Assembly (NCBI GenBank): GCA_041499375.1
Contig: JBGQKD010000006.1
Location: 43,582 to 107,581 of the forward strand
From: Gemmatimonadota bacterium
GTDB lineage: Bacteria > Gemmatimonadota > Gemmatimonadetes > Gemmatimonadales > GWC2-71-9
DNA: 64,000 nucleotides
Direction of reading: 5' to 3'
Positions 3,205-24,521 of this stretch are shown in pieces; position 1 is the first letter of the stretch; each line of letters starts with the position of its first letter. The notes under the pieces were generated by a model. The model saw nothing but the letters and a program-made list of their open reading frames with translations, made no database searches and was not told where the DNA came from. The translations under genes and the position numbers were made by a program.

Positions 3205-5115
3205 ATGCTTCCCGTCCTCCGGTACTGCAGCGTCGTCGCGCTGACGCTCCCCGCCATCGCCTGCCGTGCCTCCGATGCGGCGCCCGCGTGGCTGGAAGCG
3301 CGGGCGCACCAGGAAGCGCGGCTCGCTGCCGCATCCCCGGCCCTCCATGACTTCCGGTTCACCGATGAGCGACTGGCGAGCGGCATCACGTTCAAGAATC
3401 GGATCGTCGACGACGCCGGGAGGGCGTACAAGCTCGTCCACTATGACCATGGCAGTGGACTCTGCGCCGCGGACGTCGATGGCGATGGCCGCCCCGATCT
3501 CTACTTCCTGACGCAGCTCGGTATCAACCAGCTCTGGAAGAATGCGGGCACTGGCAAGTTCGTAGACATCACCGCCACAGCCGGTCTCGCCATGCCGGAC
3601 GAGATCGCGGTGGGCTGCGCGTTTGCCGACATCGACAAGGACGGCGATCCCGACCTCTTCGTCACCACGGTACGCCACGGAAACCGGCTGTTCGAGAACA
3701 TCGGACACGGGACGTTTCGCGACATCACCGCCGCCGCGGGCGTGGGCTACGTCGGCCACTCTGCCGGCGCCGTCTTTTTCGACTACGACGGTGACGGCCT
3801 GCTCGATCTGTTCGTCACCAACGTGGGTGTGTTCACGAGCAACACGCGCGGGCCCGGCGGCTACAACGTCGGTCTCAACGATGCCTTTCTCGGCCACCTC
3901 CACCCCGAACGCGCCGAAGCGAGCATCCTCTACCACAATCTGGGCGGCAATCGCTTCAAGGACGTCACGCGCGAGGTCGGGCTCGTGGATTTGAGCTGGA
4001 GCGGCGATGCCGTGGTGCTGGACGCGAACAGTGACGGATTCCCCGATCTATTCGTACTCGACATGCAGGGAGCCGATCACCTCTGGCTCAACCAGGGCGG
4101 TAAGCACTTCCGCGACAGCACCGCGGCCTACTTCCCGCGCACTCCCTGGGGCGCGATGGGAGCAAAGGTGTTCGACGCGGACGGTGACGGCCGGCTCGAT
4201 CTCTTCATCACGAGCATGCATCCGGACATGTGGGTCGACCTGCGACCCGGGGACTGGGCGGGCGAAAGCCGCAAAGACGACCCCGCGCAGATGCCGGGCC
4301 AGATGATTCGCGAGCCGAAGAGCTCGCTCATCTTCGGCAACGCGCTGTTCGCGAATCGTGGCAGCGGCCGATTCGACGAGGTCTCCGATACCGCAGGAGT
4401 GGAGACCTACTGGCCGTGGGGACCGAGCGTGGACGACCTCAATGCCGACGGCTGGGACGACATCTTCGTGGCCGCGGGCATGAATTTCCCGTTCCGGTAT
4501 GCCATCAACTCGGTGCTTCTCAACGAGAACGGCCGCCATTTCCTGTCGAGCGAGTTCGTGGTGGGCGTCGAGCCGAGACCGAACGGCGCTACCCAGCAGG
4601 ATTGGTTCACGCTCGAGTGCAACGGTGCCGACCGCGGAAATCCCCTTTGTTCATGCAAACACCCCCCGTCGATGATCGTGGAATGCCGCCCCGGCGGCGC
4701 GGGCCGAATGACCGTTACCGGTGCGCTCGGCACGCGTTCCGCGGTCGTCCTCGATCTCGATGGGGACGGCGATCTCGACATCGTCACCAACGAGTTCAAC
4801 GCGGCTCCGCAGGTTCTGGTCAGCGATCTCGCGCAACGGCATCACGTCAACTTCCTCGCGGTCCGGCTGCGCGGCACACGCTCCAACCGCGAGGGACTCG
4901 GCGCCGTGGTGACGGTCGTGGTCCCCGACGGGCGCCGGATCCTGAAGCAGTTCGACGGCAAATCGGGCTACCTCTCACAAAGCGACCTGCCGCTCTACTT
5001 TGGCCTGGGCGCCGCCGACAGCGCTGCGCAAATCGAGGTGCGCTGGCCGTCGGGAAAGCTGCAAACCGTCCGGGGCCCCAAGGCTGGGCAGACTATCGAC
5101 GTCGTCGAGCCTTAG
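3205..5115 (+). CDS. CRTAC1-family protein (FG-GAP/VCBS repeats plus C-terminal ASPIC/UnbV domain), secreted/lipoprotein
   Basis: ORF track 636 aa. Signal with LTLPAIAC. Repeated Ca-binding loops (ADVDGDGRPDLYF, FADIDKDGDPDLFV, FFDYDGDGLLDLFV, VLDANSDGFPDLFV, VFDADGDGRLDLFI, VLDLDGDGDLDIV). C-terminal SNREGLGAVVTV...GYLSQSDLPLYFGLG...IEVRWPSG. Confidence 0.9.
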   Translation: MLPVLRYCSVVALTLPAIACRASDAAPAWLEARAHQEARLAAASPALHDFRFTDERLASGITFKNRIVDDAGRAYKLVHYDHGSGLCAADVDGDGRPDLYFLTQLGINQLWKNAGTGKFVDITATAGLAMPDEIAVGCAFADIDKDGDPDLFVTTVRHGNRLFENIGHGTFRDITAAAGVGYVGHSAGAVFFDYDGDGLLDLFVTNVGVFTSNTRGPGGYNVGLNDAFLGHLHPERAEASILYHNLGGNRFKDVTREVGLVDLSWSGDAVVLDANSDGFPDLFVLDMQGADHLWLNQGGKHFRDSTAAYFPRTPWGAMGAKVFDADGDGRLDLFITSMHPDMWVDLRPGDWAGESRKDDPAQMPGQMIREPKSSLIFGNALFANRGSGRFDEVSDTAGVETYWPWGPSVDDLNADGWDDIFVAAGMNFPFRYAINSVLLNENGRHFLSSEFVVGVEPRPNGATQQDWFTLECNGADRGNPLCSCKHPPSMIVECRPGGAGRMTVTGALGTRSAVVLDLDGDGDLDIVTNEFNAAPQVLVSDLAQRHHVNFLAVRLRGTRSNREGLGAVVTVVVPDGRRILKQFDGKSGYLSQSDLPLYFGLGAADSAAQIEVRWPSGKLQTVRGPKAGQTIDVVEP

Positions 5116-10607: not shown

Positions 10608-10760
10608 CTAGTGAAGCGTGATCCCCAGGTAGAAGATGTCCGCGAACGCTTCGCTGAACTCGCGAATGACACGGGCCATCGCGCTCGCCGCCGACTCGAG
10701 TGACATCTCTCCTCGCAGATATCGAACGACGATCGGGTTCTGTCCCGGAACAGCGTTCAT
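10608..10760 (-). CDS. possible 50-aa protein (below the ORF-track length cutoff)
   Basis: Hand translation: MNAVPGQNPIVVRYLRGEMSLESAASAMARVIREFSEAFADIFYLGITLH. The ATG 10760-10758 overlaps the upstream TGA (ATGA). It ends 14 nt before the next start. Third-position G/C is high by hand count. No family recognised. Confidence 0.25.
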   Translation of the reverse strand: MNAVPGQNPIVVRYLRGEMSLESAASAMARVIREFSEAFADIFYLGITLH

Positions 10761-11407
10761 ATGGCGCGCCTCCGCAAATACACATGGGTCGCACGCTCGC
10801 CGGCGACATGCTTGACCGTTTCGTAGCCCAACGCCGGGAGATCGATACCTGCGAAGAGCGCTTCGCCAGCACCCATGAGGACCGGTCTCATCGCCAGATG
10901 CAGCTCGTCGATCAACCCGGCGCGCAGAAACTGGCGAATCGTCGACACCCCGCCGCCCAGCCGAATATCACGATCTCCCGCAGCTTCTCTCGCCTGCTTG
11001 AGCGCTGAGTGAATTCCATCGGTCACGAAGCGAAACTCGGTGCCGCCCGTCATTCGCAACGGAGGCCGAGCATGATGCGTCAGCACGAAGACGGGCGTGT
11101 GATACGGCGGCTCCTCTCCCCACCAGCCTCTCCAGCTTTCATCCGGCCACGGTCCACGGACGGGTCCGAACATGTTGCGGCCGAGGATCCAGGCACCGAG
11201 GCCGGCCAGAGCCTGCGCGGCAATCTCGTCGTCGATGCCCGTCTCACCGCCGTCTTGACCGTGCATGTGCTGCCAAGTTCGCGTCGGGAAGAACCAGTCC
11301 ATGAGCGCGACGCCGCCGACCCCGAGCGGATTCTGCAGGTCCTGGTTCGGCCCGGCGCCGAAGCCGTCGATCGAGACCGCGAAGCTGCTGACGCGGAGTT
11401 TGCCCAC
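10757..11407 (-). CDS. dihydrofolate reductase family protein (RibD C-terminal-domain type)
   Basis: ORF track 216 aa. FAVSIDGFGAGPNQ..., WILGRNMFGP, VFVLTHH, RLGGGVSTIRQFLRAGLIDELHL. Confidence 0.85.
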   Translation of the reverse strand: MGKLRVSSFAVSIDGFGAGPNQDLQNPLGVGGVALMDWFFPTRTWQHMHGQDGGETGIDDEIAAQALAGLGAWILGRNMFGPVRGPWPDESWRGWWGEEPPYHTPVFVLTHHARPPLRMTGGTEFRFVTDGIHSALKQAREAAGDRDIRLGGGVSTIRQFLRAGLIDELHLAMRPVLMGAGEALFAGIDLPALGYETVKHVAGERATHVYLRRRAI

Positions 11408-11412
11408 GACGT

Positions 11413-11766
11413 CTAGCGATCAGGCAAGAAGGGTGTGATCGACTCGGCGACCCCAGGACATTCGCCCGCCGCGCGCGGCCGCACCTCGAGGATCTGCTGT
11501 ACCTGAAAGTAGGGCCGCCCGCTGTAGATGCTGCCCGAGCGTCTGCTGACTCCGCGGAGACGTACGAACACCGGCTTGTTTGGCACGGCGGTGGCGCGGT
11601 AGCGCGCCGTGAGCGCCGAGTCCGGCACCGCGATCGCGACCTTGGGGTCATCGCAAGGAAAGAGGGTGCCCGAGCTCTCGTCATTGACGTACACACCACG
11701 GACTTCTGTCGGACGGTGACAGGCAACGAAGAGCAGGCACCCGAGCACACCTGCGAATTGACGCAT
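11413..11766 (-). CDS. small lipoprotein, unknown function
   Basis: C-terminal 117 aa of tracked ORF 11413..12441. Start ATG 11766-11764. Lipobox MRQFAGVLGCLLFVAC. Two further Cys (FPCDD, GECPG). Confidence 0.6.
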   Translation of the reverse strand: MRQFAGVLGCLLFVACHRPTEVRGVYVNDESSGTLFPCDDPKVAIAVPDSALTARYRATAVPNKPVFVRLRGVSRRSGSIYSGRPYFQVQQILEVRPRAAGECPGVAESITPFLPDR

Positions 11767-11771
11767 GTTTC

Positions 11772-12215
11772 TTAATCTACGCCCGGATCCAACCGCCCCA
11801 GAGCCGCCCGCGCGTCGGCGACGGCGAGCCGCCGCGCAGCGCGCTTGACCGCCGGCGGCACCCAGCGAGGGAACGGCACGAGCCGTTCTTCGTGCCGGCC
11901 GCTGGCCGTGTGGACTTCCTGCACCGCCGCCAGGTCGCGCCGCGCGAAGTTGCGCGCCAACCGGACGAGCGCCGGCCAGAGCCGTCGATGCACGTACGTG
12001 ATCTTTCGGCCGACAAGCCGGCAGACGAGGACGTCGGTCGAGTCGCGCACCGCGCGTGTCAGCCGGAAGATTTCTTTCCCCTTGGCGTGGCCCCACCAGC
12101 TGCCGCGAATGCGCCCCCCGACCACCGCCTCGGCCAGATTCGGGACCGGACCCCGGGCGCTTTCGAGGACGATGCCGTTTCGTTTGACGAAGGAGAGCGC
12201 TGAGCGTCGGGTCAC
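11772..12215 (-). CDS. hypothetical 147-aa protein (conserved-looking, basic)
   Basis: C-terminal part of tracked ORF 11772..12482. In-frame GTG 12215 overlaps the cytochrome stop (GTGA). Sequence ...PNLAEAVVGGRIRGSWWGHAKGKEIFRLTRAV...VHRRLWPALVRLA... Confidence 0.55.
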   Translation of the reverse strand: MTRRSALSFVKRNGIVLESARGPVPNLAEAVVGGRIRGSWWGHAKGKEIFRLTRAVRDSTDVLVCRLVGRKITYVHRRLWPALVRLARNFARRDLAAVQEVHTASGRHEERLVPFPRWVPPAVKRAARRLAVADARAALGRLDPGVD

Positions 12216-13372
12216 GGCTCCGGATACACCTTGATCCAATGGCTGCGCACTTGCGGCCGCAGTTGATGGCCGAGGGAGTTGGACACGAGTACCTGCGACG
12301 TCTGCAGGGGCATGTGACAAACGACGCAGCGGCCCACCAGCTGGTTTCCGTGGCGCGGAAAGAGTCCACAGCTCTGGACCGTATGACAGGTGAGACAGCG
12401 CGCGGAGAGCGCCACGAGGTCCCGCTGTTCGCGGTGCACATCGTGGCACGTGGCGCAAGTCATTTGCGATGCACGGAAGCACGCGCTGCGCTCCAGCAGC
12501 GCGACCTGGTTGCCGTGCACGTCGGCCACGCCCGTGTCGGGCGGGCTCGACAGGTCAAATCGCTTCTCGAGACGCTGCCCTGGCACGAACGAGAACGGAG
12601 CCGTCCGGAGCGGCGCCGTCCCGCTATGGCACAGGGCGCACGCGTCCACCTGGCGCGCGCGAGGCAAGCGCGCCGGGTTCACGATCGCGTGGGACCGTAA
12701 ACCGGAGAGCACCGAGCGCTCGCGCGCCACATGGTCTCGACCCGAGCCGTGACAGACTTCGCAGGTTATCCCGAGGAGTGCGCCGGTGGGCTGATATCGG
12801 TTGAGGGCATTGGAATCGGCCACCGACTGGAACCCGGATGAGTGACACTCCAGACACCGCGGATAGATGGGGCGATCGAAGTTGAGTACTCCGTCCCGGT
12901 ATCCCGGGCTGTTAGTCCATCCGAACCCCGCCCAATGAGACACCGGGTGCTGATACAGCCGGTCGCCGCGCCAGTAGAGAAAGGACTGACCCTTCCGCAC
13001 GCCGGTGACGATGTCAATGCGCTCGCGCCGTGTCGATGTATCGGGCGGCCGTCCCACCACCGCGGTTTCATAGAAGCCCGTCGCCGTCGAGTCCATCCGG
13101 AAGTGCAGATTCGGATTCGCGGTCCGAAGCACATTCTCGCCCGGGTCGAAGCGGCCCTGAATGGTCGCGCGCGTCGGCAGGGTGGAGGTCAGGCGATGGG
13201 CAGTCTGCTCGAAGCTCGCCATCGTCGTGTGGCAGCTGAGACAGGTCGCGTCTCCAACCGCGTTACCCGGGCGCACCGGCTCGGTGTGATGCCGTGTCGC
13301 GAAGAGTCCAATGGTGACCCCCGCCGCACCGAGCAGCACGAGCCCGGCGATTCGTCGCCATGGCAACCTCAT
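12212..13372 (-). CDS. multiheme c-type cytochrome (7 CXXCH), N-terminal membrane anchor
   Basis: Tracked ORF 12212..13486 trimmed to ATG 13372 (ATGA overlap with the upstream stop). Anchor IAGLVLLGAAGVTIGLF. Heme motifs CLSCH, CLECH, CEVCH, CALCH, CATCH, CLTCH, CVVCH. Confidence 0.85.
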   Translation of the reverse strand: MRLPWRRIAGLVLLGAAGVTIGLFATRHHTEPVRPGNAVGDATCLSCHTTMASFEQTAHRLTSTLPTRATIQGRFDPGENVLRTANPNLHFRMDSTATGFYETAVVGRPPDTSTRRERIDIVTGVRKGQSFLYWRGDRLYQHPVSHWAGFGWTNSPGYRDGVLNFDRPIYPRCLECHSSGFQSVADSNALNRYQPTGALLGITCEVCHGSGRDHVARERSVLSGLRSHAIVNPARLPRARQVDACALCHSGTAPLRTAPFSFVPGQRLEKRFDLSSPPDTGVADVHGNQVALLERSACFRASQMTCATCHDVHREQRDLVALSARCLTCHTVQSCGLFPRHGNQLVGRCVVCHMPLQTSQVLVSNSLGHQLRPQVRSHWIKVYPEP

Positions 13373-14238
13373 CCAGCCGCCGCGGGGGTACGTCGCGCGG
13401 TGCGACGCAGATCCCACCACATCGCCAGCGGCCCGACCATCGCGAGCGCCAGAATCGGGGGTGACACGTAGAACGGCCGGAGCCACCCTATCTGATAATC
13501 ACCCGCGAGACGAATGAGGGTTTCGACCAGCGCGACGATCGCCACCACAATCATCCGGCCGCGCCGCGTGCTCACCGTGGTGCGCGGATCGGTGACCATG
13601 AAAAAGACGAACAGCTGATACATCGGACCGGTAATCGGCGCGAGCTCGGCGAACAGGGGCCCGCCCACGATAAAATGGCGTAGCAATGCGAAGAAGACGA
13701 AACAGGCGACGTAGGTCAGCGTGACGTGCAGTACCCGCGCGCGCCAGGCGATCACCAGGCCGAACGCCCAGATCACCAGGTTCGTGCCGAGATCGTTGCC
13801 CCACTGGTGACTGAGGATCGCGACGGAGTCGGACGCCACCAGCACGAGCAGCGCGATCGCGAAGTTGCTGGGATTCCACAGGTGGCGGCCGCGATAGGTG
13901 AGCACGTATTTCGACGCGATCGCGATAAAGGCACCCAGCGCGAACGGCCAGAGAATATTGGCCTGCGGCTTGATCAGCAGCGCCAGGCTGATCCCCGTGA
14001 TGTACGCGCTCGCCAGATTGGCCACTCGGCCCCGCAGCCACCACGACAACAGCGCTTCGGTCGCCAGGCACACGCCCAGCGTCGTCACCAGACGCTGGTA
14101 CCCGCCCAGAATGTGGTAGCGCGCTTCGCCCACCACGAGCACGAGCGTGATGAGAAAGACAATGAGGTACTTCGGATCCGTCACCCAGGCCGCGAAACCG
14201 CGCGCGTGGGCGGACGCCTGCGCAGGAGCAGCCGTCAC
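13369..14238 (-). CDS. polytopic membrane protein resembling the RnfD/NqrB family
   Basis: Tracked ORF 13369..14310 trimmed to GTG 14238 (GTGA overlap with the upstream stop). Multi-TM. HLWNPSNFAIALL resembles the (F)NPA block and FVFFMVTDPRTTVST resembles the FFMATDPVT block of RnfD/NqrB, from memory. I saw no obvious SGAT-type flavinylation motif. Confidence 0.65.
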   Translation of the reverse strand: MTAAPAQASAHARGFAAWVTDPKYLIVFLITLVLVVGEARYHILGGYQRLVTTLGVCLATEALLSWWLRGRVANLASAYITGISLALLIKPQANILWPFALGAFIAIASKYVLTYRGRHLWNPSNFAIALLVLVASDSVAILSHQWGNDLGTNLVIWAFGLVIAWRARVLHVTLTYVACFVFFALLRHFIVGGPLFAELAPITGPMYQLFVFFMVTDPRTTVSTRRGRMIVVAIVALVETLIRLAGDYQIGWLRPFYVSPPILALAMVGPLAMWWDLRRTARRTPAAAG

Positions 14239-15974
14239 CGCGGTTCCGTGATCACGTGCAGCTGATCGATCGCCAGACCGTTCAGCACCTGCGTCTCGCC
14301 CGACGGCCACCGAATCGTCACGCTCCCCAACCCTTGATCCCCCAGGCCAAAGTGCAGCCGCCGATCGTTCTGACTGCAGAACCCCGACCCACCGTCCACC
14401 ACCTGGCGCTGCCGCCCGGGCCCGATCTCCGCCGTCACCTCGGCCCCGATGGCGCTATGGTTGCTGCGGGTGCCCTCGAGCTTCAACTCGACCCAATGGG
14501 CGGCGTTGGCCGTGTTGCGATAGAGCAGCGCCCTGCCCTTCTCGTTCGCAACCACCACGTCGAGCAGACCTCGATTGAAGAGATCGGCCATCGCGACGGC
14601 GCGGCCATCCAGCAGATCAGTGACCCCCGCTTCCTGTGCGACATCGATGAACCCGACCTGGCCGCGATTCAGCAGCACGCGCGAGCGCTCGTAGCCGGAC
14701 AGGCTGGCGCTGCCGATCGGCGGCCAGTTCTTGGCATCCTCGAAGATGTTGCCCTGCGCCCCCGCGATCTTGGACATCGCGTACCAGTAGCTGCGCGTCG
14801 AATCGGCGGAAATGAATCCGTTCGCCACGAACAGATCGAGCATCCCGTCGTTGTTCAGGTCGCCGAACTGCGCGCCCCAAGCCCATCCCGCGTCGGCGAC
14901 GACGCCGGTCGCGACTTCGTCGAAGCGTCCCAGCTGGTTCAAGAAATTGAGCCGCAGGTTGTTGCCCTGAAACAGGAAGCCCTTTTCGGAGATGTTCGTG
15001 ATGAAGGCGTCGTGCACCCCGCGGTTGTAGACGTCGCCGAGCGCGACCGCCATGCCGCTCTTCGAGTCGTCCTCGAGGCCAGCCCGCGCCAACTCGAAGC
15101 GCTTGCCCTCATGGTTCAAGTAGAGCTCTTCGGGTCCGTAGTCGTTGGCGAGATAGAGGTCGGGCCAGCCGTCGTCGTTGAAGTCGGCGGCCGCCGCGGC
15201 CAGCGTCCAGCGCGTGCTGCCGACGCTCATCGAGTCGGTCACGTCCTTGAAACGCCCGTTGCCGAGATTCTTGAAGAGCAGGTTCTTGCCGCCGTTCGAC
15301 GCGAACTCCCAGCTCGACTGCATGATGCGCGTCGTCTTCAGATGCCAGAAATCGATGTCGGAGCGGAAGTAGCCGGTGATGTAGAGATCGAGCAGCCCAT
15401 CGCGATCGAAGTCGAACCAGACGGCGCCATTGGAGTTCATCCAGGTCCACAGGCCCGATTGCGCCGTCACGTCTTCGAAGTGCCCGTTGCCGAGGTTGTG
15501 AAAGAGCTGCGGATAGCCCCATTTGTAGACGAGCAGGTCCTCGAGGCCGTCGTTGTCGTAGTCGCCCCACACGGCGCCCATCGACACCCCTTCGCCGGCA
15601 CGATTCACCGCACCGACGCCTGCCTCGGCGGAGATGTCGCGGAATGTGCCGTCCTTCTGGTTCAGGTACAGCGCGTTGGACGCGCCGAAGCGTGACGTGG
15701 TGAAGTAGAGGTCGGGCCAGCCGTCGTTGTTCACGTCCGCCACCGAGACGCAGGCGCCGAGCGCCGCGATGTGGGCGGCGATGTGATTGACTTTCGGATC
15801 GAGCGTCGGTGATTGATGGACGAAGTCGATCCCGCTCGCGTGCGCGACTTCGCTGAGATGAATCGTTTCACTCGCGCCGCCGCCGCTCGTCGCGGCGCCG
15901 GCATTCAGAATCACCACCGCAGCGATGGCGGCCACGAACGCCGCGATCACAATGAAACGACGCCCCGAAAGCAT
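14235..15974 (-). CDS. CRTAC1-family protein (FG-GAP/VCBS plus ASPIC/UnbV)
   Basis: ORF track 579 aa. N-terminal anchor/signal FIVIAAFVAAIAAVVIL. VADVNNDGWPDLYF, WGDYDNDGLEDLLV, WFDFDRDGLLDLYI, AADFNDDGWPDLYL, FGDLNNDGMLDLFV. C-terminal SNHSAIGAEVTA...GFCSQNDRRLHFGLG...VTIRWPSG. Confidence 0.9.
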   Translation of the reverse strand: MLSGRRFIVIAAFVAAIAAVVILNAGAATSGGGASETIHLSEVAHASGIDFVHQSPTLDPKVNHIAAHIAALGACVSVADVNNDGWPDLYFTTSRFGASNALYLNQKDGTFRDISAEAGVGAVNRAGEGVSMGAVWGDYDNDGLEDLLVYKWGYPQLFHNLGNGHFEDVTAQSGLWTWMNSNGAVWFDFDRDGLLDLYITGYFRSDIDFWHLKTTRIMQSSWEFASNGGKNLLFKNLGNGRFKDVTDSMSVGSTRWTLAAAAADFNDDGWPDLYLANDYGPEELYLNHEGKRFELARAGLEDDSKSGMAVALGDVYNRGVHDAFITNISEKGFLFQGNNLRLNFLNQLGRFDEVATGVVADAGWAWGAQFGDLNNDGMLDLFVANGFISADSTRSYWYAMSKIAGAQGNIFEDAKNWPPIGSASLSGYERSRVLLNRGQVGFIDVAQEAGVTDLLDGRAVAMADLFNRGLLDVVVANEKGRALLYRNTANAAHWVELKLEGTRSNHSAIGAEVTAEIGPGRQRQVVDGGSGFCSQNDRRLHFGLGDQGLGSVTIRWPSGETQVLNGLAIDQLHVITEPR

Positions 15975-16022
15975 GGCCTAAACGATATCCGGCCCGGCAA
16001 GGGTGCGTTAGTTTCCCTGCCC

Positions 16023-19000
16023 ATGTTACGCCTTGCGATTTGTTCGATCGGTATGCTCCTGCTGCTCAGCTGCCGCCGGGAAACGACCCCGCCGTTATTC
16101 ACGCTCCTGTCTCCGCATCAGACAGGGGTCACGTTCGCCAACACTATCACCACCAGCGACTCGATGAACCTGCAGAACCACGTCTACCTCTACAACGGTG
16201 CGGGCGTGGCGGTCGGCGATATCAACAACGACGGGCTCCCCGATCTGTTCTTCAGCGGCAACATGGTCTCGAGCCGGCTGTACCTGAACAAGGGCAACCT
16301 GCAGTTCGAAGACATCACCGAGCGCGCCGGGGTCAAGACCACCCGGTGGTGTACGGGCGCAACGATGGTGGACATCAACAACGACGGGTTGCTGGACATC
16401 TACCTGTCCGTTTCCGGGCCCGGAGCCGGGTCCAGGGGGGTCGACCGCGCCAACCTGTTGTTCATCAACAACGGCGATAACACGTTCACGGAAGCGGCGC
16501 ACCAATACGGGATCGCCGATACCGGCTTCACGACGCACGCCGCCTTCCTCGATTACAACGGGGACGGCTACCTCGATCTCTTTTTGTTGAACAACTCGCC
16601 ACAAGATTTCGCCCGCGGTGCGGCCGACACGCACCCGCTCGGCGTGCAGACCATCAGTCCCGCGAGCTACAACACACTCTACCGCAACAACGGTGACGGG
16701 ACCTTTACCGACGTCTCCGCACAGGCGGGAATTCTGCGGCAGATCGGGTATGGCCTCGGTGTGGTCGTGGCCGATGTCAACCGCGACGGCCGGCCCGACA
16801 TCTACGTGTCCAACGACGTCTCCCCGAACGACGCCCTCTACATCAACAACGGCAACGGCACGTTCACCGATCGGGCCGCCGCGTCGCTGAAGCATGCGAG
16901 CATCGCGGGGATGGGCGCCGACATCGCCGACTTCAACAATGACGGCTGGCCCGACATCGTGCAGATGGACATGCTGCCCGCCGCCGCCGAGCAGCGCAAA
17001 CGGATGAGCGGCTTTCTCACCTACGGTAGGCGCATGCAGCAGCGGCAGCGCGGCTTTCGGGACGACTACGACGCCAACGCCCTGCAGCTCAGCAACGGTG
17101 TGACGCCGCAGGGGACCGTCGTTTTCAGCGAAATCGCGAATCTGGCAGGCGTCGCCGCCACCGATTGGAGCTGGAGCCCCTTGTTCGCCGACTTCGATAA
17201 CGACGGACGCAAGGACATCTTCATCACGAACGGCTATCCCAAAGCGCCGAACGATCTCGACTACCAGGCGGCGGTGTTTGGGGCGCGCCGCGGGAGCAAT
17301 CACGCGGCGGCGCTCGAGGTGTTGCATCAGTTGCGCAGTTACAAGCTTCGTAACTATCTGTTTCGCAACAACGGCGACCTGACGTTCAGCGATGTCGGCA
17401 AGGCGTGGGGCATGACCCAGCCCGGCTTCTCGTACGGCGCCGCCTACGTCGATCTCGACAACGACGGCAAGCTCGACCTGGTCGTGAGCAACATCGACGC
17501 GCCCGCGTCGATCTACGAGAATGTCCAGCGCGACAGCGCCGCGCACTATCTCACGGTGGTCCTCGACGGCGCAGCACCGAACCGGCGCGGTCTCGGCGCC
17601 TCGCTGGCGCTGACGGCAGCGGGTCAGCGGCAGTATCTCTACGAGTCGCCGTACCGTGGCTTCATGTCGACGATGGACGACCGCGAGCACTTTGGGCTCG
17701 GCACGGCGACGCGCGTCGACAGCCTGGCGGTGACGTGGCCGGATGGCCGGACGCAGGTGCTCACGGATCTCGCCGTGGACCGGATGATCACGGTGCGTCA
17801 GGCCGACGCCTCCACCTCCACCAACCTTCACCAACCTCCACCGTCCTCCACCATCCGTTTCTTCCAGGCCGCGCCAGCGCCGCCCTACCGGCAGGTGCTG
17901 CCCGCCTCATCCGATTTCGAAGTCCAGCCGCTCCTGCCCTATGAGCCGTCGCGCCAGGGGCCTCCGCTCGCGGTTGCCGACGTCAACGGCGACGGTCTCG
18001 ACGACATCTTTGTCGGCGGCAGGGCCGAGGTGCCGGGCAAGCTCTTTCTTCAGAAGAGGGACGGCAGCTTCGTCGAATCGGCAGTGGGCCAGCCGTGGAC
18101 GGCGGACAAAGGCTACGAGGACTGGGGAGCCGTGTTCTTCGACGCCAATGGCGACGGACGGCCCGATCTCTATGTGGCAAGCTGCGGCTACCAGCATACG
18201 CCGGTGTCACGGTTGCTGCAGGACCGGCTCTACATCAATCAGGGCGGCGGCAAGTTCGTGCGCGACATCCCGGCATTACCGGAGATGCTCGCCTGTACGG
18301 CGGCTGTGGCGGCGGGCGATTTCAATGGCGATGGCAAGCCGGATCTGTTTGTCGGCGGCCGGCTCACGCCGCGCAGCTACCCCTACCCCGCGCGTAGCTA
18401 CATCCTCCGCAACGAGGGTGGACACTTCACCGACGTGACGGCGCAAGTCGCGCCCGAGCTGGCGCAACCCTTCGGCATGATCACCGCGGCAGTCTGGGGC
18501 GATTTCGACGGCGACGGCCGCCTCGATCTCGTGACGGCCGGCGAATGGATGCCGCTCCAGTTCTGGCACAATGACGGCAACAAACTGGTGCCCGTCTCCG
18601 TCGGATTGCCGCCCACACGAGGCTGGTGGTGGAGCCTGGCCGCCGCCGACTTCAATCACGACGGTCGCCCCGACCTCGTCGCGGGCAACATGGGGCTGAA
18701 CTTCATGTATCAGACGTCGCCCCAGAATCCGTTCGGCGTGTACGCGGCCGACTTCACCGGCGATCACGGGACCGATATCGTCCTGACGCAGACGATCGAC
18801 GGGAAGGACTATCCGTTCTTTGGCCGGGCGAAACTCGGCCCCGTGATCTATCCTCTCGCGCTGCGCATCCCGCGCTACTCGACATTCGCGGCCGCAACGG
18901 TCGCGCAGCTGTTCAGCTCCGCGCAGCTACAGCGCGCGCTGCACTATCAGGCCGATACGTTCGCGAGCCTATACCTGCAGAACAACGGCAACGGCACCTT

Positions 19001-19331
19001 CACCGCGGCGCCGCTGCCGAATCGCGCGCAGATTTCGCCGATCCGTGGCATTGTGGCGCGCGATGTGGATGGCGACGGCAACCTCGATCTGATCGTCGCG
19101 GGGAATCTCACCGAAATGGAGCCGAACACCACGCCGCCCGATGCGGGCAACGGGCTCTGGCTCAGGGGCGATGGCCGAGGACACTTCACGCCGGTCTCGC
19201 CGTTCGAGAGCGGCTTCCTCGCGCCGCGGGGCGTGTCGGGATTGACGCTCATGAAAACGCCTGCAGGGAGCGCCGTGCTCGTAGCGAACACGGGCGACTC
19301 CCTGCAGGCGTTTACGATTCGAAACCGCTAG
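16023..19331 (+). CDS. large VCBS/FG-GAP lipoprotein: CRTAC1-like unit (with ASPIC/UnbV) fused to a second FG-GAP propeller
   Basis: Tracked ORF 15813..19331 trimmed to ATG 16023 (MLRLAICSIGMLLLLSC lipobox). More than 10 D-x-N/D-x-DG-x-x-D loops. Internal ASPIC/UnbV-like RRGLGASLALTA...DDREHFGLG...LAVTWPDG, then an S/T/P linker (ADASTSTNLHQPPPSST), then a second repeat set. Confidence 0.9.
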   Translation: MLRLAICSIGMLLLLSCRRETTPPLFTLLSPHQTGVTFANTITTSDSMNLQNHVYLYNGAGVAVGDINNDGLPDLFFSGNMVSSRLYLNKGNLQFEDITERAGVKTTRWCTGATMVDINNDGLLDIYLSVSGPGAGSRGVDRANLLFINNGDNTFTEAAHQYGIADTGFTTHAAFLDYNGDGYLDLFLLNNSPQDFARGAADTHPLGVQTISPASYNTLYRNNGDGTFTDVSAQAGILRQIGYGLGVVVADVNRDGRPDIYVSNDVSPNDALYINNGNGTFTDRAAASLKHASIAGMGADIADFNNDGWPDIVQMDMLPAAAEQRKRMSGFLTYGRRMQQRQRGFRDDYDANALQLSNGVTPQGTVVFSEIANLAGVAATDWSWSPLFADFDNDGRKDIFITNGYPKAPNDLDYQAAVFGARRGSNHAAALEVLHQLRSYKLRNYLFRNNGDLTFSDVGKAWGMTQPGFSYGAAYVDLDNDGKLDLVVSNIDAPASIYENVQRDSAAHYLTVVLDGAAPNRRGLGASLALTAAGQRQYLYESPYRGFMSTMDDREHFGLGTATRVDSLAVTWPDGRTQVLTDLAVDRMITVRQADASTSTNLHQPPPSSTIRFFQAAPAPPYRQVLPASSDFEVQPLLPYEPSRQGPPLAVADVNGDGLDDIFVGGRAEVPGKLFLQKRDGSFVESAVGQPWTADKGYEDWGAVFFDANGDGRPDLYVASCGYQHTPVSRLLQDRLYINQGGGKFVRDIPALPEMLACTAAVAAGDFNGDGKPDLFVGGRLTPRSYPYPARSYILRNEGGHFTDVTAQVAPELAQPFGMITAAVWGDFDGDGRLDLVTAGEWMPLQFWHNDGNKLVPVSVGLPPTRGWWWSLAAADFNHDGRPDLVAGNMGLNFMYQTSPQNPFGVYAADFTGDHGTDIVLTQTIDGKDYPFFGRAKLGPVIYPLALRIPRYSTFAAATVAQLFSSAQLQRALHYQADTFASLYLQNNGNGTFTAAPLPNRAQISPIRGIVARDVDGDGNLDLIVAGNLTEMEPNTTPPDAGNGLWLRGDGRGHFTPVSPFESGFLAPRGVSGLTLMKTPAGSAVLVANTGDSLQAFTIRNR

Positions 19332-19341
19332 GGCAAGTCCG

Positions 19342-21201
19342 CTAGTTACACGTACCCCACCCGGTGTTCTGCACTAGCCGGCATTCACTCCCAACCTTGC
19401 TCAGCTCGATCTGTGTCGACGGAATCGGATAGTACAGGTACTGTGGCAACACGTACGGTGCGGCCAGGGTGAGGTACCTAATCCGCGTCTTCTCGCTCGC
19501 GAGGTAGTTCGTGACGACGGTGTCCGACCCGCCCCAGCGCCGCAGGTCGAAGAAGCGCTGCCCTTCCATCGCCAGCTCGAGACGCCGCTCGGCGCGAACC
19601 GCCGCCCGTGCGGTGGCCTGCACGGTCCAGGGCGTGGTGTACTGACCGATCTTGTAGAAGGCCCACGGCTTCTGCAGGGAGTCGAGCGTCCCCGTCAGAT
19701 TCGCCAGCATCGGCTGCGCCAGGCGGGTGTCTCCAATGCAGGACGCATACCGGTTCGTGACCGTCGAATCGGCGCTGCCGCAGCCCTGCGCGGTAATGCC
19801 CGCCCGTGCTCTGATCGAATTCACGATCGCCCGGGCGTTCTCGAGGCTTCCGGCTTCGACCTCGGCCTCGGCCAGCATTAGCAACATGTCGGCGTACCGG
19901 TAGAGATGAATCGGCACGTCGTTCGTCTGCGATGCCACCCAGCCGACGTTGTTCTCAGCGTTCGGCGCCCCTTGCTCATGGATGTTCTTCTTGGGGCTGT
20001 ACGGACCGCTGTAGGAGGCGTCGCGGATCCACTGGCGGATGTGCACGCCCCAATCCTTATAGGGGACGTTATCCCGGCCTACGGTCCAATCGAGCCGCGG
20101 ATCGACCGCGTTCGGCATTCCCGCATAGGTCGTGTCAGTGTTCCACGCCGGGCCCGCCACTGCCAGCGGCAGACCGGCCGCATCGACCTTGAAGTAATTC
20201 GTCAGGTTGTACGACGGCTGGTGGAAGCCGCAGCAGGCGAAGTGGCTCGGAGCGTACGGGAAATTGAGCCGCTCGCCCCAGTTCGAGTTCCAACCACTCG
20301 GCTCGCCGTCCTTGACCGAGGCTTGGAACGCGAGGATGGTCTCCTTGCCGTTCCGGTACGCCGGAAAGCCGGTCCAGACGTGATCGAAGCTGGTCTCGAG
20401 CGCGAACACGTTGCTGTTCTTCACCGCCGTCAACGTGGTGATCGCCTGCGCCCAGTAGGCTGGGTTCAGCGCGGCGGCGTACACCTGCACGCGACCCTTG
20501 TACGCCCGCGCCGCCCACGACGTCACGCGGCCCTTTTCGCCATTGCGCGGCGCAGGCGGAAGCATGGCCGCGGCGCTGTCGAGGTCCGCGATCATCAGCT
20601 TGATGATCGAGTCGAGCGGCAAATCGTTCGGCTTCCGGAGATCGGTATCGGTCTCCAAGTAGTAGGGAATGTGCCCCCACATCCGGTAGGCCTCGAAGTG
20701 GTAGTGCGCCCGCAGGAAGAGCGCCTCGCCGCGGATCTGGCGTGCCACCCCCGCCGCGAACTCGCCCGGCTTCGATGCCTCCACGGCCTCGAGCAGGCGG
20801 AGCGTCGCGTTGGAGCGTGCCACGCCCTCATAGACCTGGGCCCACTTCTGGTTTATGTAGGTGTCGGCCTCGCCGACGCTCCACAGAAACGTCTCGATGT
20901 CGTTGATCGGCTGCTGATCGCCGAGGTCGGAGCCCTTGTACGCGTCATTGCCGGTGACGCTGCCCCACACCCAGTTGCTGGCGGCGCAGCCCCAGGAGCC
21001 GGAGGAGCTGGACTCGCAGTCCAGCGCCCGGTAGGCCGCGATGAGCGAGCCTTCCACGCCGACTTTCGTCGAGAGCGTCGATTGATCGACCGTGCCTTGG
21101 GCGGGCTGGTCCAGGAAATCTTTGCAGGCGTAGGTGACGCCGGCGACGACCACCAGTGCCGCCATGCTGTACAAGACTCGCTGCCACATGTGTCTGTTCA
21201 T
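19342..21201 (-). CDS. SusD/RagB-family nutrient-binding outer-membrane lipoprotein
   Basis: Tracked ORF 19342..21225 trimmed to ATG 21201 (RBS GGAGAGGGA upstream; MNRHMWQRVLYSMAALVVVAGVTYAC lipobox). Size and position directly downstream of the SusC-like gene. Typical blocks RALFLRAHYHFEAYRMWG, ERRLELAMEGQRFFDLRRW. Confidence 0.88.
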   Translation of the reverse strand: MNRHMWQRVLYSMAALVVVAGVTYACKDFLDQPAQGTVDQSTLSTKVGVEGSLIAAYRALDCESSSSGSWGCAASNWVWGSVTGNDAYKGSDLGDQQPINDIETFLWSVGEADTYINQKWAQVYEGVARSNATLRLLEAVEASKPGEFAAGVARQIRGEALFLRAHYHFEAYRMWGHIPYYLETDTDLRKPNDLPLDSIIKLMIADLDSAAAMLPPAPRNGEKGRVTSWAARAYKGRVQVYAAALNPAYWAQAITTLTAVKNSNVFALETSFDHVWTGFPAYRNGKETILAFQASVKDGEPSGWNSNWGERLNFPYAPSHFACCGFHQPSYNLTNYFKVDAAGLPLAVAGPAWNTDTTYAGMPNAVDPRLDWTVGRDNVPYKDWGVHIRQWIRDASYSGPYSPKKNIHEQGAPNAENNVGWVASQTNDVPIHLYRYADMLLMLAEAEVEAGSLENARAIVNSIRARAGITAQGCGSADSTVTNRYASCIGDTRLAQPMLANLTGTLDSLQKPWAFYKIGQYTTPWTVQATARAAVRAERRLELAMEGQRFFDLRRWGGSDTVVTNYLASEKTRIRYLTLAAPYVLPQYLYYPIPSTQIELSKVGSECRLVQNTGWGTCN

Positions 21202-21237
21202 CGTCTTCCGTCCCTCTCCAGTCAAAGACGAAGTTCG

Positions 21238-24200
21238 TTAGAAGGTGGTCGAAATCCCGATCGTAATGATCTTGTTGCTCGGATACGTGCCCTGGTCGAT
21301 GCCACGGGCCTCATCCCGAATGTCGCCTGTGTTCCCGCCGGAAGCTGCTACCGGGAGCGACGGATCGAGACCGGAGTACCCGGTAATCGTGAACAGATTT
21401 TCCGCCTGCAGGTACACGCGCGCGGCCGGGATCCATCGGACGATGGCGGGCGGGAGGTTGTACGAGAGCTGCAGGGTGCGCAGCCGCACGTACGAGCCGT
21501 CCTCCACCCAGTAGCTGCTCCACTGCCGGCTGAACGCGTCGCTGCCGTCGATCCGGGGATACTTGGCGCCCGGGTTGATCACGCGCGGATCGCCGCTGCA
21601 ACCACGTGACGCGTCGCATGGTTTATCGAGCTGCACCGAATTGGCGAGCAGGTCCTTCGCGACGTTGGTGGCGAAGTACCGGTACACGTACCAGTACTTC
21701 TGCGTGTTGAAGATCTGGTTGCCGAAGGTCCCGAACACCGTGGCACTCAGTTCCCACGAACCGCGCCGCAGCGCGAGATCGAGCCCGGCCGTGAAATCGG
21801 GATGCGGGCTGCCGATGAGCGCCCGGTCGTCGGCGGTGATCAAGCCGTCGCCGTTCAGATCCTTGAACTTGATGCGCCCGGGGCGCGCGCCCGAAGACCA
21901 GTAGGGCGACGCATCCACCGAATCGACGTAGTAGCCGTCGGCCACCAGACCGTAGAACGCGCCGAGCGGCTGACCCAGCTCGTTGCGCACCGCGTTTTGC
22001 TCGCGCACCACCGAGCTGCCGCGTCCGAGGAAGAACGTTTGCACGCCGTCGATCTTCGTGATCTTGTTCTTATAGTGGCTGCCGTTGAACGACACGCTCC
22101 ACACCGTGCGCGTGCCGATCGTGCTGTGATAGCCAATCGAGAAATCGATGCCGTTGTTGCTCATGCTGCCGATATTGCGAACCGGCGGCGCCGCGGAGCC
22201 GCCCGTCGCGGGCGTCGGCGGATCGAACAACAGACCATTCGTGTTGCGGCGATACACATCGACCGTGAAATTGCCGCGGCCGCTGAGGAACTCGAAGTCC
22301 AATCCGGCGTTCGTCGAATGGTTCTCTTCCCACTTCAAGGTCGGGTTGCCGAGCGCGGTGGTCTTGAAGCCCGGCTGAATCGACGACCCGGTCCCGCCGA
22401 TGTCATAGAAGACATCGCCGCGGTCGCCGCCGTACTGATCGTAGATCCGGAACGGGACGTTCTGATTGCCCGTCACGCCCCATCCGAAGCGGAGCATGAC
22501 GTTCTGCACCGGCAGGCTCTGGCCGAACGATTCCCGCGAGATCCGCCAGCCGCCCCCGACCGCCGGGAACGTCCCCCACCGGTTCGTCGGCCCGAACGTC
22601 GATGATCCGTCGCGCCGCAGCGTCAAGCTGAGATAGTAGCGGTCGCCGTAGTTGTAGTCCGCCTTGCCGAAGAACGAGAGTAGCGCGTGTTTGCTACCGG
22701 AACTGCTCACGTTCTTCGTCGTCGGATCGCACAGCGCGTCCTGGATGTAGCGCGAGTCCACGCTGTTGTTGAGCAGCTTGGTGCAATTGCCCGCCTCGAA
22801 CCGGAAGTTGCCCTTGATCGCTTCCTGCCCCAGGAGCAGCGTGACGTTGTGCTGGTTCATCGTCCGCGAATAGTTCAGCGTATTGCTCCAGGTCCACTCC
22901 GAGAACAGGCTGTAGTTCTCGTTGATGCCGTCGATGTCCGTCACTTCCCGGTCCTCGAACGTCGTCGGCGTGTACCCGTGGAACGAGCCCTGATTGAGAT
23001 TGAATCCGAACTTCGTCTTCAACGACAGCGCGTGCCCCGCATCGACGGTCCCGAACACGTTGCCGAACACGCGATCGTTCGTCGCGATGTTGTTCTGCGC
23101 AAAGGTCGCGATCTTGAGGGGGTTCGTCATGTTGCCGAGACCGCCGGCCTTGCCGGAGGCAAAGTTCCCGCCGACGTCGTAGATCGGGGTCACGGGCTGC
23201 TGGAAGATATTCTTGCCGACGATATTCCCTTCACCGACGTTGTCATCGGTGAGCCCCTCGGCGCCGTGGTGCTGCTCGCGCGAGATCGAAAGGTTCTCGC
23301 CGATGCTGGCCCGACCGATGTTGAACGTGGTGTTGACCCGGGCGCCGCCGCGCTGGAACCGCGTGAACGCCGCCGTGCCCTCCTGGTCGAGATAGTTCAA
23401 CGACACGTGGTAGGCGTTGTCATCCCCGCCGCCCGAGAGGGCCAGGTTCGCGTCGCGGTACTGACCGGACCCGAACACCGCCTTCCACCAATTGGTCCCC
23501 GGGCTGCCGGGCATGATCAGGTTGGTCGGGTACGAATACGTCGCCGGATCGACGTTGGTGCAGGGCACCGGCGTCCCGTTCGCATTGTTGCAGTTGTTCG
23601 GAAAGATGTATGCCGGGACGCTGGGGTTGACTGAATCCCCGTAGATGTTGATCGGGATCTGCTGTCCCGCGTTCTGTTGCCCCAGCTTGACGACCTTGAA
23701 ATAGTCGAGCGAATTCTGGATCAGGATGTCGTCATAGCCGTGCGTGGGGGTGGCCACCCCGGTCCGGACGTCCAGCGTCACCTGCCGCTGTCCCGGTCTC
23801 CCCTTTTTCGTTTCGATGATGATGACGCCGTTGCTCGCGCGCGATCCGTAGATCGACGTCGCGGAGCCGTCCTTCAGCACCTGCATGGACGCGATGTCGT
23901 CCGGGTTCAGGAAGTTGAGATACGACTCCTGCACCGGCGTCCCGTCGACGATGTACAGCGGGTCGTTGTTCTGAAAGCCCGTGACACCGCGGATCCGCAC
24001 AGTGCTTTTTGAACCGGGAGCACCGCCGCTCTCCACCGTCACGCCCGGCACCCGCCCGTCGAGCCGCTGCAGCACGCTCGTCGAGGTCTGTTGCTGCGCG
24101 CCCTCGACGTTGATGCTCGACACGGAGCCCGTGATGTCCGCGCGGCGCTGCGCCGTGTACCCGGTCACGATCACCGGCTCGAGCACGGCGATCGCCGACT

Positions 24201-24504
24201 CGAGCGCGACGTCGATCTGGGGACGCCCCGCAATCGTGCGCGCGCCGCCCTTGTACCCGATCAGCGCGAACAGGAGCACGCCGTCGCCGGGCGCTGTAAT
24301 GGTGTACTTGCCGTTTGCGTCGGTTGTGGTCGTGGTGGTCGTCCCACGCACCTGGACCGTAACGCCTGGCAACCGTTCACCCGTTATCGAGGTGACCGTG
24401 CCGGAGACCTGGGTCTCCTGCGCCAGAGCCGTGCCGCTCACGGTCAGCGTGAACAGCAGGCCCATTCCGAGTGCAGCGAGAGCACGAATGATTTTCTTTT
24501 CCAT
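21238..24504 (-). CDS. SusC/RagA-family TonB-dependent outer-membrane receptor
   Basis: Tracked ORF 21238..24525 trimmed to ATG 24504 (RBS GGAGG). Signal peptide, then a carboxypeptidase-regulatory-like domain (VSGTVTSITGERLPGVTVQVRG...DANGKYTI), a plug (DGRVPGV..., PLYIVDGTP), a long beta-barrel and a C-terminal ...IGISTTF. Confidence 0.92.
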   Translation of the reverse strand: MEKKIIRALAALGMGLLFTLTVSGTALAQETQVSGTVTSITGERLPGVTVQVRGTTTTTTTDANGKYTITAPGDGVLLFALIGYKGGARTIAGRPQIDVALESAIAVLEPVIVTGYTAQRRADITGSVSSINVEGAQQQTSTSVLQRLDGRVPGVTVESGGAPGSKSTVRIRGVTGFQNNDPLYIVDGTPVQESYLNFLNPDDIASMQVLKDGSATSIYGSRASNGVIIIETKKGRPGQRQVTLDVRTGVATPTHGYDDILIQNSLDYFKVVKLGQQNAGQQIPINIYGDSVNPSVPAYIFPNNCNNANGTPVPCTNVDPATYSYPTNLIMPGSPGTNWWKAVFGSGQYRDANLALSGGGDDNAYHVSLNYLDQEGTAAFTRFQRGGARVNTTFNIGRASIGENLSISREQHHGAEGLTDDNVGEGNIVGKNIFQQPVTPIYDVGGNFASGKAGGLGNMTNPLKIATFAQNNIATNDRVFGNVFGTVDAGHALSLKTKFGFNLNQGSFHGYTPTTFEDREVTDIDGINENYSLFSEWTWSNTLNYSRTMNQHNVTLLLGQEAIKGNFRFEAGNCTKLLNNSVDSRYIQDALCDPTTKNVSSSGSKHALLSFFGKADYNYGDRYYLSLTLRRDGSSTFGPTNRWGTFPAVGGGWRISRESFGQSLPVQNVMLRFGWGVTGNQNVPFRIYDQYGGDRGDVFYDIGGTGSSIQPGFKTTALGNPTLKWEENHSTNAGLDFEFLSGRGNFTVDVYRRNTNGLLFDPPTPATGGSAAPPVRNIGSMSNNGIDFSIGYHSTIGTRTVWSVSFNGSHYKNKITKIDGVQTFFLGRGSSVVREQNAVRNELGQPLGAFYGLVADGYYVDSVDASPYWSSGARPGRIKFKDLNGDGLITADDRALIGSPHPDFTAGLDLALRRGSWELSATVFGTFGNQIFNTQKYWYVYRYFATNVAKDLLANSVQLDKPCDASRGCSGDPRVINPGAKYPRIDGSDAFSRQWSSYWVEDGSYVRLRTLQLSYNLPPAIVRWIPAARVYLQAENLFTITGYSGLDPSLPVAASGGNTGDIRDEARGIDQGTYPSNKIITIGISTTF

Positions 24505-24521
24505 GAATCCCTCCGCCTCCC

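Follow-up and report, generated by a model that had tools for sequence, protein, structure and literature searches.

A tightly packed, co-directional gene string lies on the minus strand of a Gemmatimonadales genome, within the 64-kb window analyzed here (the whole stretch of 64,000 nucleotides (nt) from contig JBGQKD010000006.1). Its first two genes, g1 and g2, are an orphan pair of the E4/E5 (UnbV/UnbU) type, and the third, g3, encodes a predicted heptaheme cytochrome that is lineage-specific and translationally coupled to the pair. The E4/E5 pair itself is known; its occurrence as an orphan with such a cytochrome is new here. The preferred reading, to which a probability of about 0.6 was given, is that of an orphan UnbV/UnbU-type pair with a lineage-specific cytochrome add-on, the pair forming a membrane complex with a small substrate. 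The three genes are as follows.

14235-15974, minus strand: g1, CRTAC1-like propeller of 579 amino acids (aa), assigned from Pfam and a CRTAC1 structure match.
13369-14238, minus strand: g2, polytopic membrane protein of 289 aa with the RnfD/NqrB fold and without the flavin mononucleotide (FMN) loop, assigned from PF03116, AlphaFold2 and Foldseek.
12212-13372, minus strand: g3, predicted membrane-anchored heptaheme c-type cytochrome of 386 aa, assigned from CXXCH motifs, Pfam and a transmembrane helix.

The only deeply conserved unit of the string is g1 with g2, and the evidence supports these two as a real functional pair. Loci were scanned at one genome per species, which gave 80 loci with relatives of g2 (43-89% identity) from Gemmatimonadota, Planctomycetota, Acidobacteriota and Bacteroidota, the cultured planctomycete Engelhardtia mirabilis Pla133 being among the carriers. 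Loci with at least 1.5 kb upstream of g2 were taken as assessable for the upstream gene. Of the 70 assessable loci, 69 have a full-length g1 orthologue (43-89% identity) as the immediate upstream neighbour of g2, in the same orientation; other propeller paralogues were at most 34% identical to g1. A possible xTGA overlap was present at the g1/g2 junction in 36 of the 69. Continuous open reading frames in which an RnfD-like domain is followed by a transmembrane helix and then by an FG-GAP/UnbV propeller were found in three cluster representatives, P0196 (881 aa), P0138 (822 aa) and P0212, and the interdomain helix of these proteins fits a cytoplasmic C-terminus of g2 together with an extracytoplasmic propeller. 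Two other apparent propeller/RnfD-like fusions, P0213 and P0140, have low-complexity, out-of-frame-looking linkers and are probably frameshift or gene-calling artefacts.

Five FG-GAP_3 stretches (1.4e-40, 138 bits) and a C-terminal UnbV_ASPIC domain (7.9e-21, 74 bits) were identified in g1 with Pfam. The FG-GAP repeats carry DxDxDG-type loops and the N-terminus contains one hydrophobic helix, either an anchor or a signal. The solved chain of CRTAC1 (cartilage acidic protein 1), 9etn_A, was matched at 4e-16. Propellers paired with g2 are marked by 25 signature positions, conserved to at least 95% within this group and seldom seen in the remaining paralogues; Trp, Asn, Ser, Lys, Tyr and Asp account for most of them.

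For g2 a match to PF03116 (NQR2_RnfD_RnfE) was obtained at 43.4 bits against a cut-off of 27.7, covering profile positions 182-271 of 296 only. Scores against the curated RnfD, RsxD and NqrB models were 17-33.5 bits, below cut-offs of 207-415 (TIGR01946 rnfD, 33.5 bits against 207; NF003756 NqrB, 18 bits against 414). An AlphaFold2 model of g2 was built on 26 diverse homologues and was confident, with a predicted local distance difference test (pLDDT) of 88.3 and a predicted template modelling score (pTM) of 0.85. The top 15 Foldseek matches in the PDB were all RnfD or NqrB chains (template modelling score 0.55-0.67), with RnfD chains at 0.64-0.67 and NqrB chains at ∼0.6 as the best of them (9eri_D, 8rbq_D, 7xk3_B). 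Urea and ammonium channels were the next structural neighbours. As the model is confident and RnfD/NqrB chains are its best structural matches, the fold assignment is sound.

The core motifs SK...H.(F/W)NPSN and FFM(I/V)TDP.T are retained in g2. A profile of the g2 family was aligned to residues 44-142 and 223-340 of Azotobacter vinelandii RnfD and to residues 17-141 and 220-343 of Escherichia coli RsxD, skipping a 78-residue insert (142-219) in the latter. The skipped insert holds DGISQAT with T187, which we take to be the covalent FMN attachment site of RsxD. In the g2 family 95 residues separate the two core motifs, versus 169 in RsxD, and the FMN-threonine motif (D-G/A-x-S/T-x-A-S/T) was found in none of 270 g2-family proteins. 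Searches of the 64-kb window by tblastn with E. coli RsxA, RsxB, RsxC, RsxG and RsxE returned nothing below E = 0.27. Because the FMN-threonine loop is missing and the window holds no other Rnf subunit, g2 is a member of the RnfD/NqrB superfamily and not a functional RnfD or NqrB.

The nearest known context for such a pair is enediyne biosynthesis. The enediyne warhead cassette has been presented as an essential five-gene set (PMC8341276, PMC11350584). Iodinated polyene and polyyne products of the cassette are said to have been reported in 2024 by Gui and colleagues (cited in PMC10760148). Several g2 homologues are named 'enediyne biosynthesis protein E5' by the Joint Genome Institute (JGI), and tblastn of g2 against plasmids matched Streptomyces genes annotated as 'enediyne biosynthesis protein UnbU'. 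The members of the cassette are PKSE, E3/UnbL (DUF1702), E4 (UnbV), E5 (UnbU) and the E10 thioesterase. On Streptomyces clavuligerus pSCL4 and on a plasmid of Streptomyces sp. NBC_00523, genes for DUF1702 (E3), a VCBS/ASPIC-UnbV protein (E4), UnbU (E5), a polyketide synthase (PKS) and a thioesterase are arranged in this order; the PKS beside E5 is of type I (1950-1984 aa), and E4 and E5 overlap by 4 nt on both plasmids. UnbV beside the RnfD-like UnbU is the known E4/E5 pair of the enediyne cassette, a precedent that the first-pass annotation of this DNA had missed.

Alignment of g1 to S. clavuligerus E4 gave 29-30% identity over 550 columns (E ∼1e-42), the best value among the propellers of the window. 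Alignment of g2 to E5 of Streptomyces sp. NBC_00523 gave 26% identity over 298 columns (E 5e-17), nearly end to end, and to S. clavuligerus UnbU 31% over 174 columns. The motifs H.(F/W/M)NPSNF and M(I/V)TDP.TTP are common to g2 and E5, and E5 is itself RnfD-like, scoring 24 bits across the whole Pfam profile. Of the 25 signature residues that mark propellers paired with g2, 14 are present in the two enediyne E4 proteins. At the other 11 positions both diverge from the orphan propellers in the same way, several of the changes being polar to hydrophobic. Since 14 signature residues are common and the remainder differ uniformly, the pair in the window is a sister subfamily of E4/E5 that lies outside enediyne clusters.

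It could instead be supposed that the pair was left over from, or is a scattered piece of, a natural-product gene cluster of the enediyne or polyyne type. The homology to E4/E5, with the same gene order and overlap, would agree with this, as would a plasmid of Serratia proteamaculans (L175:1-10619; loci are cited by L number) on which genes for a ketosynthase, a flavin adenine dinucleotide (FAD) oxidoreductase, a glycosyltransferase, a DUF1702 (E3-like) protein, LuxR, a VCBS propeller and an UnbU-like protein annotated 'RnfD' are clustered. When S. clavuligerus PKSE, E3 and E10 were searched by tblastn, however, none was found at E ≤ 1e-3 in the window or in ∼170 other loci. The pair is also near-universal in lineages not known for enediynes, and the E4 proteins share their divergence at the same 11 signature positions. 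A remnant is thus very improbable. The Serratia cluster continues with genes for a histidine N-methyltransferase and a TauE/SafE exporter, and a TauE gene is located 1.3 kb downstream of the pair in E. mirabilis (L049:12117-12902).

All seven CXXCH motifs of g3, and five further His residues, are invariant in 16 homologues. One N-terminal transmembrane helix is present at residues 8-26, and a conserved heme-free insert of 110 residues separates hemes 1 and 2. Pfam matches were to generic cytochrome c3/c7/c554 models, with no NapC/NirT match in g3; weak local similarity was seen to the DmsE and GSU2203 decaheme models and to cytochrome c554. Against the curated NCBIfam models for the DmsE and GSU2203 decaheme cytochromes and for NrfB, scores versus cut-offs were 51 versus 325, 44 versus 192 and 17 versus 167 bits. 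These data support g3 as a membrane-anchored heptaheme cytochrome, with heme attachment predicted from the motifs.

The remaining features of the string and its divergent flank are as follows.

11772-12215, minus strand: g4, basic cytoplasmic protein of 147 aa, without a Pfam or NCBIfam match.
11413-11766, minus strand: g5, small lipoprotein-like protein of 117 aa, lipobox LFVAC.
10757-11407, minus strand: g6, RibD_C (dihydrofolate-reductase-like) protein of 216 aa, Pfam RibD_C at 1.9e-17.
15975-16022, no strand: divergent intergenic region between g1 and g0, 48 nt, read from the sequence.
16023-19331, plus strand: g0, double FG-GAP/UnbV propeller lipoprotein of 1102 aa, assigned from Pfam and lipobox LLLSC.

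The stop codon of g1 and the GTG start of g2 overlap in a GTGA (minus strand 14238-14235, reading CGGTGACGG), the g2 stop and g3 start in an ATGA (minus strand 13372-13369, reading GGATGAGG) and the g3 stop and g4 start in a GTGA (minus strand 12215-12212, reading GCCGTGACC). The g4/g5 junction reads TAA-GAAAC-ATG (11774-11764), a gap of 5 nt, and another 5-nt gap leads from g5 to g6, the sixth co-directional gene. The start codons of g1 and g0 diverge across the 48 nt at 15975-16022. Public copies of this DNA were available in the NCBI metagenome-assembled genome (MAG) GCA_041481815.1, contig JBGPCO010000014.1, and in JGI Ga0534153_0000041; independent public gene calls on identical DNA gave the same coordinates and products of 579, 289, 386, 147, 117 and 216 aa. 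No sigma-70-like promoter match was obtained in the 48-nt g1/g0 intergenic region. A single terminator-like hairpin was found, inside g5, and such hairpins were fewer than in shuffled sequence. Rfam and tRNA scans of the window returned no RNA gene. Coordinate arithmetic places the end of JBGPCO010000014.1 near window position 48127 and the start of JBGPCO010000028.1 near 48007, so that the NCBI MAG assembly is broken within window ∼48000-48130; the JGI contig runs through without interruption, and a short repeat or assembly ambiguity may sit at this point.

The first-pass annotation had described five genes with these three overlaps, the 5-nt gap and the 48-nt divergent gap, all of which agree with the sequence and the public gene calls. 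Its description of g1 as a secreted FG-GAP and ASPIC/UnbV protein agrees with the Pfam domains and the N-terminal hydrophobic helix, and that of g3 as a membrane-anchored cytochrome with seven CXXCH motifs with the helix at residues 8-26 and the invariance of the motifs. The view of g2 as RnfD/NqrB-like and standing alone was likewise upheld by the fold and by the Rsx searches of the window. The tight coupling had further been taken as a sign of joint function. Overlaps of 4 nt are present in five of the ten other same-strand junctions within 10 kb, between genes that are functionally unrelated (e.g., ABC transporter, AP endonuclease 2, PIG-L). As such overlaps are usual in this genome, they are a weak hint of common function here.

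No signal sequence and no Pfam or NCBIfam domain was found in g4. Its family (reference loci: window 11772-12215, L172:6001-6453, L173:6001-6477) is highly conserved and has more than 7000 homologues at 66-99% identity, none with a Pfam domain. An AlphaFold2 model of g4 was confident (pLDDT 86) and gave no PDB match at E < 0.5, the weak ones being winged-helix-like. Elsewhere g4 stands in arrays of small cytoplasmic genes (RibD_C, DinB_2, TfoX_N, DUF4440, DUF488, SnoaL_2, glyoxalase), and one homologue overlaps a RibD_C gene by 4 nt. Because its homologues accompany RibD_C and small cytoplasmic genes elsewhere, g4 and g6 belong to a different gene set; they are probably cytoplasmic hitch-hikers, separate from the envelope pair. 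The match of g5 to NlpE_C (0.058) was under the cut-off. Jackhmmer searches with g5 retrieved only members of the window's clade (12 metagenome loci and the genome locus L010) and the window's own copies. In the clade g5 follows g3 or g2.

Among the 80 species-level loci, g3 was found behind g2 in one (L005) and g4 in one (L004), and g5 was found only as the weak match at L010. When metagenomes were scanned for relatives of g3 (52-90% identity), g3 was found behind g2 only in the window's clade, in 16 contigs including L005 with g3 at 76-88% identity; the 4-nt g2/g3 overlap was kept in eight of the 16. The slot behind g2 in this clade is a mosaic. It is occupied by g3-g4-g5-g6 in the window and in L089, by g3-g5 in L100, by g3-x-g5 in L090 and L091, by g4-g6 in L004 and by g5 in L010. 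The soil contig L089 has all six genes in order at 88-98% identity; in a relative with an 83% identical g2, g1-g2 is followed by unrelated genes (a 133-aa protein, DUF2306 and a 122-aa protein). From these data g3 is a clade-specific add-on of one narrow Gemmatimonadales lineage and not a conserved module member.

These distributions bear on the proposal that all five genes g1 to g5 are one envelope electron-transfer machine, in which g2 would act as an RnfD/NqrB-type redox or ion-pumping subunit linking the propeller to the hemes. The overlapping junctions along the string, the g2/g3 overlap maintained in half of the clade contigs, the six genes retained in order in L089 and the score of g2 above the PF03116 cut-off all agree with such a machine. 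Yet hardly any of the 80 species genomes has g3, g4 or g5 behind g2 and their presence varies even among the closest relatives, the FMN-threonine loop is deleted in 270 of 270 family proteins, the RnfD/NqrB equivalog scores are far under their cut-offs and no RnfA, RnfB, RnfC, RnfE or RnfG homologue was found in the window. In addition g4 is cytoplasmic and comes from unrelated gene arrays, and overlaps of 4 nt are the genome default. A five-gene machine is therefore unlikely.

The first-pass annotation had put forward an envelope module of propeller, membrane subunit and cytochrome, and the g1-g2 pair stands as the real part of it, but a five-gene module is not conserved. The same division appears in its component claims. 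Membership of g2 in the RnfD/NqrB family passes at the level of the Pfam profile and fails at that of the equivalog rnfD and NqrB models. The expected co-occurrence in other genomes is found for g1 upstream of g2 and not for g3 behind it. A role for g2 as a flavin redox subunit is unsupported, the FMN-threonine segment being deleted.

Outside the clade, distant homologues of g3 were found beside a g0-type double propeller or convergent with a single UnbV paralogue. Others stand in an operon with genes for an Asn-synthase-like (AsnS-like) protein, a radical S-adenosylmethionine (radical-SAM) protein and an FAD enzyme, in the order g3-AsnS-radical SAM-FAD or AsnS-radical SAM-FAD-g3, and the g3-containing operon is convergent with g2-g1 in L152, L154 and L163. 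In 27 of the 46 g3 loci assessable on both sides, the pair, a propeller paralogue or an AsnS/radical-SAM/FAD gene lies within 500 nt. The cytochrome-propeller association is one of shared islands, and its statistical strength is modest. A redox link between the g3 family and the pair is possible.

Of the 80 genome loci, 25, representing at least three phyla, have the AsnS-like/radical-SAM/FAD triad no more than 10 kb from the pair. The AsnS-like protein has ∼445 aa, the RaSEA-like radical-SAM protein ∼316 aa (CPFxCxxC) and the FAD enzyme ∼530 aa (QhpG/LodB/CmlS/geranylgeranyl reductase-like). The reference copy is L088:9246-13128, and the triad is also present in L012, L022, L025-L043, L050, L053, L058, L059, L070, L076, L079 and L081-L083. 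It is convergent with the pair in Gemmatimonadota and Acidobacteriota; in L050, L053 and L058 it precedes the pair in the same orientation. In Gemmatimonadaceae contigs a g3-type cytochrome is located within the triad operon.

Two assignments for triad members were tried and dropped. The 316-aa neighbour was considered as a remote DUF1702/E3 protein and ruled out, being a RaSEA-like radical-SAM protein with a CxxxCxxC motif. The FAD neighbour was considered as a halogenase that would give a link to enediyne iodination. That assignment was unsupported: CmlS, QhpG and geranylgeranyl reductases score equally and far under cut-off, and the WxWxIP motif is not properly present in the FAD neighbour.

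In a Bacteroidales MAG of 38% GC (L053:2898-10762), an overlapping co-directional string runs through the g1-g2 orthologues in the order UnbV paralogue, 149-aa protein, AsnS-like, radical SAM, CMD/AhpD-like, g1 orthologue, g2 orthologue. In Acidobacteriota, too, genes of the CMD family are repeatedly found close to the pair (e.g., L071:14159-14773). On plasmid pB218 of Metabacillus sp. B2-18 (L174:7276-8663) a redoxin gene overlaps a 265-aa UnbU-like gene annotated 'RnfD' by 4 nt, the redoxin being a different extracytoplasmic partner for the UnbU-like membrane family. The recurrence of redox or biosynthetic partners of UnbU-like proteins speaks, without being proof, for a catalytic or redox-linked role and against one in transport alone.

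Beyond g0, and convergent with it, come genes for a SusD-like protein (19342-21225) and a SusC/TonB-dependent receptor (21238-24525); the SusC-SusD-g0 arrangement is kept in relatives. A third UnbV-type propeller of 636 aa is encoded on the plus strand at 3205-5115; with g0 and g1 close by, the region is therefore a propeller-rich island. Two other kinds of multiheme protein were seen in related islands. Proteins of ∼715-730 aa with an N-terminal cytochrome-b561/DUF4405-like membrane domain and four CXXCH motifs (c554-like) adjoin UnbV paralogues near g1-g2 in L011:1752-3893, L015:3355-5547, L025:2134-4320 and L029:5925-8111; these tetraheme proteins (714-731 aa) were rejected as g3 homologues, the similarity being confined to the heme motifs. 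A 363-aa cytochrome c3/c7-like protein with 12 CXXCH motifs is encoded 2.5 kb downstream of the pair in a Gemmatimonadaceae MAG (L023:13345-14433).

A compact, propeller-rich island would also suit a non-redox explanation, in which the pair is a transport, export or anchoring device, built of a channel-like membrane protein and a propeller that binds a ligand, and the cytochrome is adjacent only through gene shuffling. Urea and ammonium channels come next among the structural neighbours of g2, neither g1 nor g2 yielded a cofactor motif, and the g1 signature residues Trp, Asn, Ser, Lys and Tyr are typical of a binding pocket or interface. The mosaic slot behind g2, the weak enrichment of propeller DNA near g3 and the SusC/SusD uptake genes flanking the island point the same way. 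It is harder to accommodate that FAD, radical-SAM, AhpD-like, redoxin, PKS and cytochrome partners recur across unrelated phyla and arrangements, and that the g2/g3 overlap is maintained in the clade. A non-redox device is consequently regarded as a real, if minority, possibility.

In the preferred reading, the orphan pair with a cytochrome add-on, g1, an extracytoplasmic propeller held by its N-terminal helix, would form one membrane complex with g2, the propeller sitting on the outer face of g2. A channel-like conduit, an anchor or a scaffold is proposed for g2. The complex would work on a small, probably hydrophobic or envelope-associated substrate and not as a flavin electron pump. In the window's lineage g3, with the lipoprotein g5, would have moved directly behind g2; in sister lineages g3 is carried in a neighbouring operon of the same island with the AsnS-like, radical-SAM and FAD enzymes. 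The least secure part of the scheme concerns g3 (with or without g5), whose likeliest role would be electron transfer linking the quinone pool to some oxidation or reduction at the propeller complex. For the pair itself a part in redox chemistry is plausible.

Several observations weigh against this reading. No cofactor site was found in g1 or g2, nor any conserved Cys/His cluster beyond H119 of g2 and H53 of g1. To our knowledge the activities of E4 and E5 are biochemically undefined, hence the homology yields no mechanism. The AsnS/radical-SAM/FAD triad is absent from the window, and 19 of the 46 assessable g3 loci have no pair, propeller paralogue or triad gene as an immediate neighbour. 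Propeller genes fill 13% of distal versus 19% of near flank DNA; with propellers this common in the islands, lying next to one counts for little by itself. The g1-g2 fusions, for their part, are metagenomic gene calls.

Thousands of metagenomic proteins carry the names 'RnfD subunit', 'NqrB' or 'enediyne biosynthesis protein E5', and these are corrected by the present assignment. Both E4 and E5 are essential in every enediyne antitumour-antibiotic cluster. Three findings are relevant to their role: E5-type proteins have an RnfD fold without the flavin loop, the pair always occurs together in non-producing Gemmatimonadota, Planctomycetota, Acidobacteriota and Bacteroidota, and its neighbours are repeatedly redox enzymes, a translationally coupled heptaheme cytochrome among them. 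Taken jointly, they give a handle on E4/E5 function, with testable hypotheses and new model organisms such as E. mirabilis Pla133. A broader proposal, rather doubtful and put forward tentatively, is that the UnbV/UnbU pair is an ancient, multi-phylum envelope redox module in which the extracytoplasmic propeller would carry out an oxidation or reduction of a hydrophobic or envelope substrate and a flavin-less RnfD-fold protein would serve it across the membrane, and which the enediyne cassette would have borrowed. If so, the overlapping heptaheme cytochrome would be genomic evidence for the activity of E4/E5, and the recurrent radical-SAM, FAD, AhpD-like and redoxin neighbours would be likewise.

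Compared with known systems, g3 has in common with NapC/NirT/NrfH-type and DmsE/MtrA-type cytochromes an N-terminal transmembrane helix near the first CXXCH and a chain of hemes; it differs in its seven predicted hemes, its heme-free insert and its scores far under the cut-offs of the curated models. RnfD/NqrB and g2 have in common the fold, the Lys of the GK/SK motif, the NP motif and the TDP.T motif, whereas g2 is without the FMN-phosphoryl-threonine insert and the partner subunits and scores below the equivalog models. The FG-GAP and UnbV_ASPIC architecture of the CRTAC1/ASPIC family is common to g1, which in contrast is bacterial, forms its own subfamily and is always paired with an UnbU-like gene; its 25 signature residues are missing from other paralogues, including g0. 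The enediyne cassette differs from the window in its host, Actinomycetota and not Gemmatimonadota, in the heptaheme cytochrome that trails the window pair, and in PKSE, E3 and E10, which are not near the window pair. Enediyne E4/E5 and g1/g2 nevertheless have the same domain architectures, gene order and 4-nt stop/start overlap: E4 and g1 both combine a signal or anchor with FG-GAP and UnbV_ASPIC domains, and E5 and g2 are both polytopic and RnfD-like.

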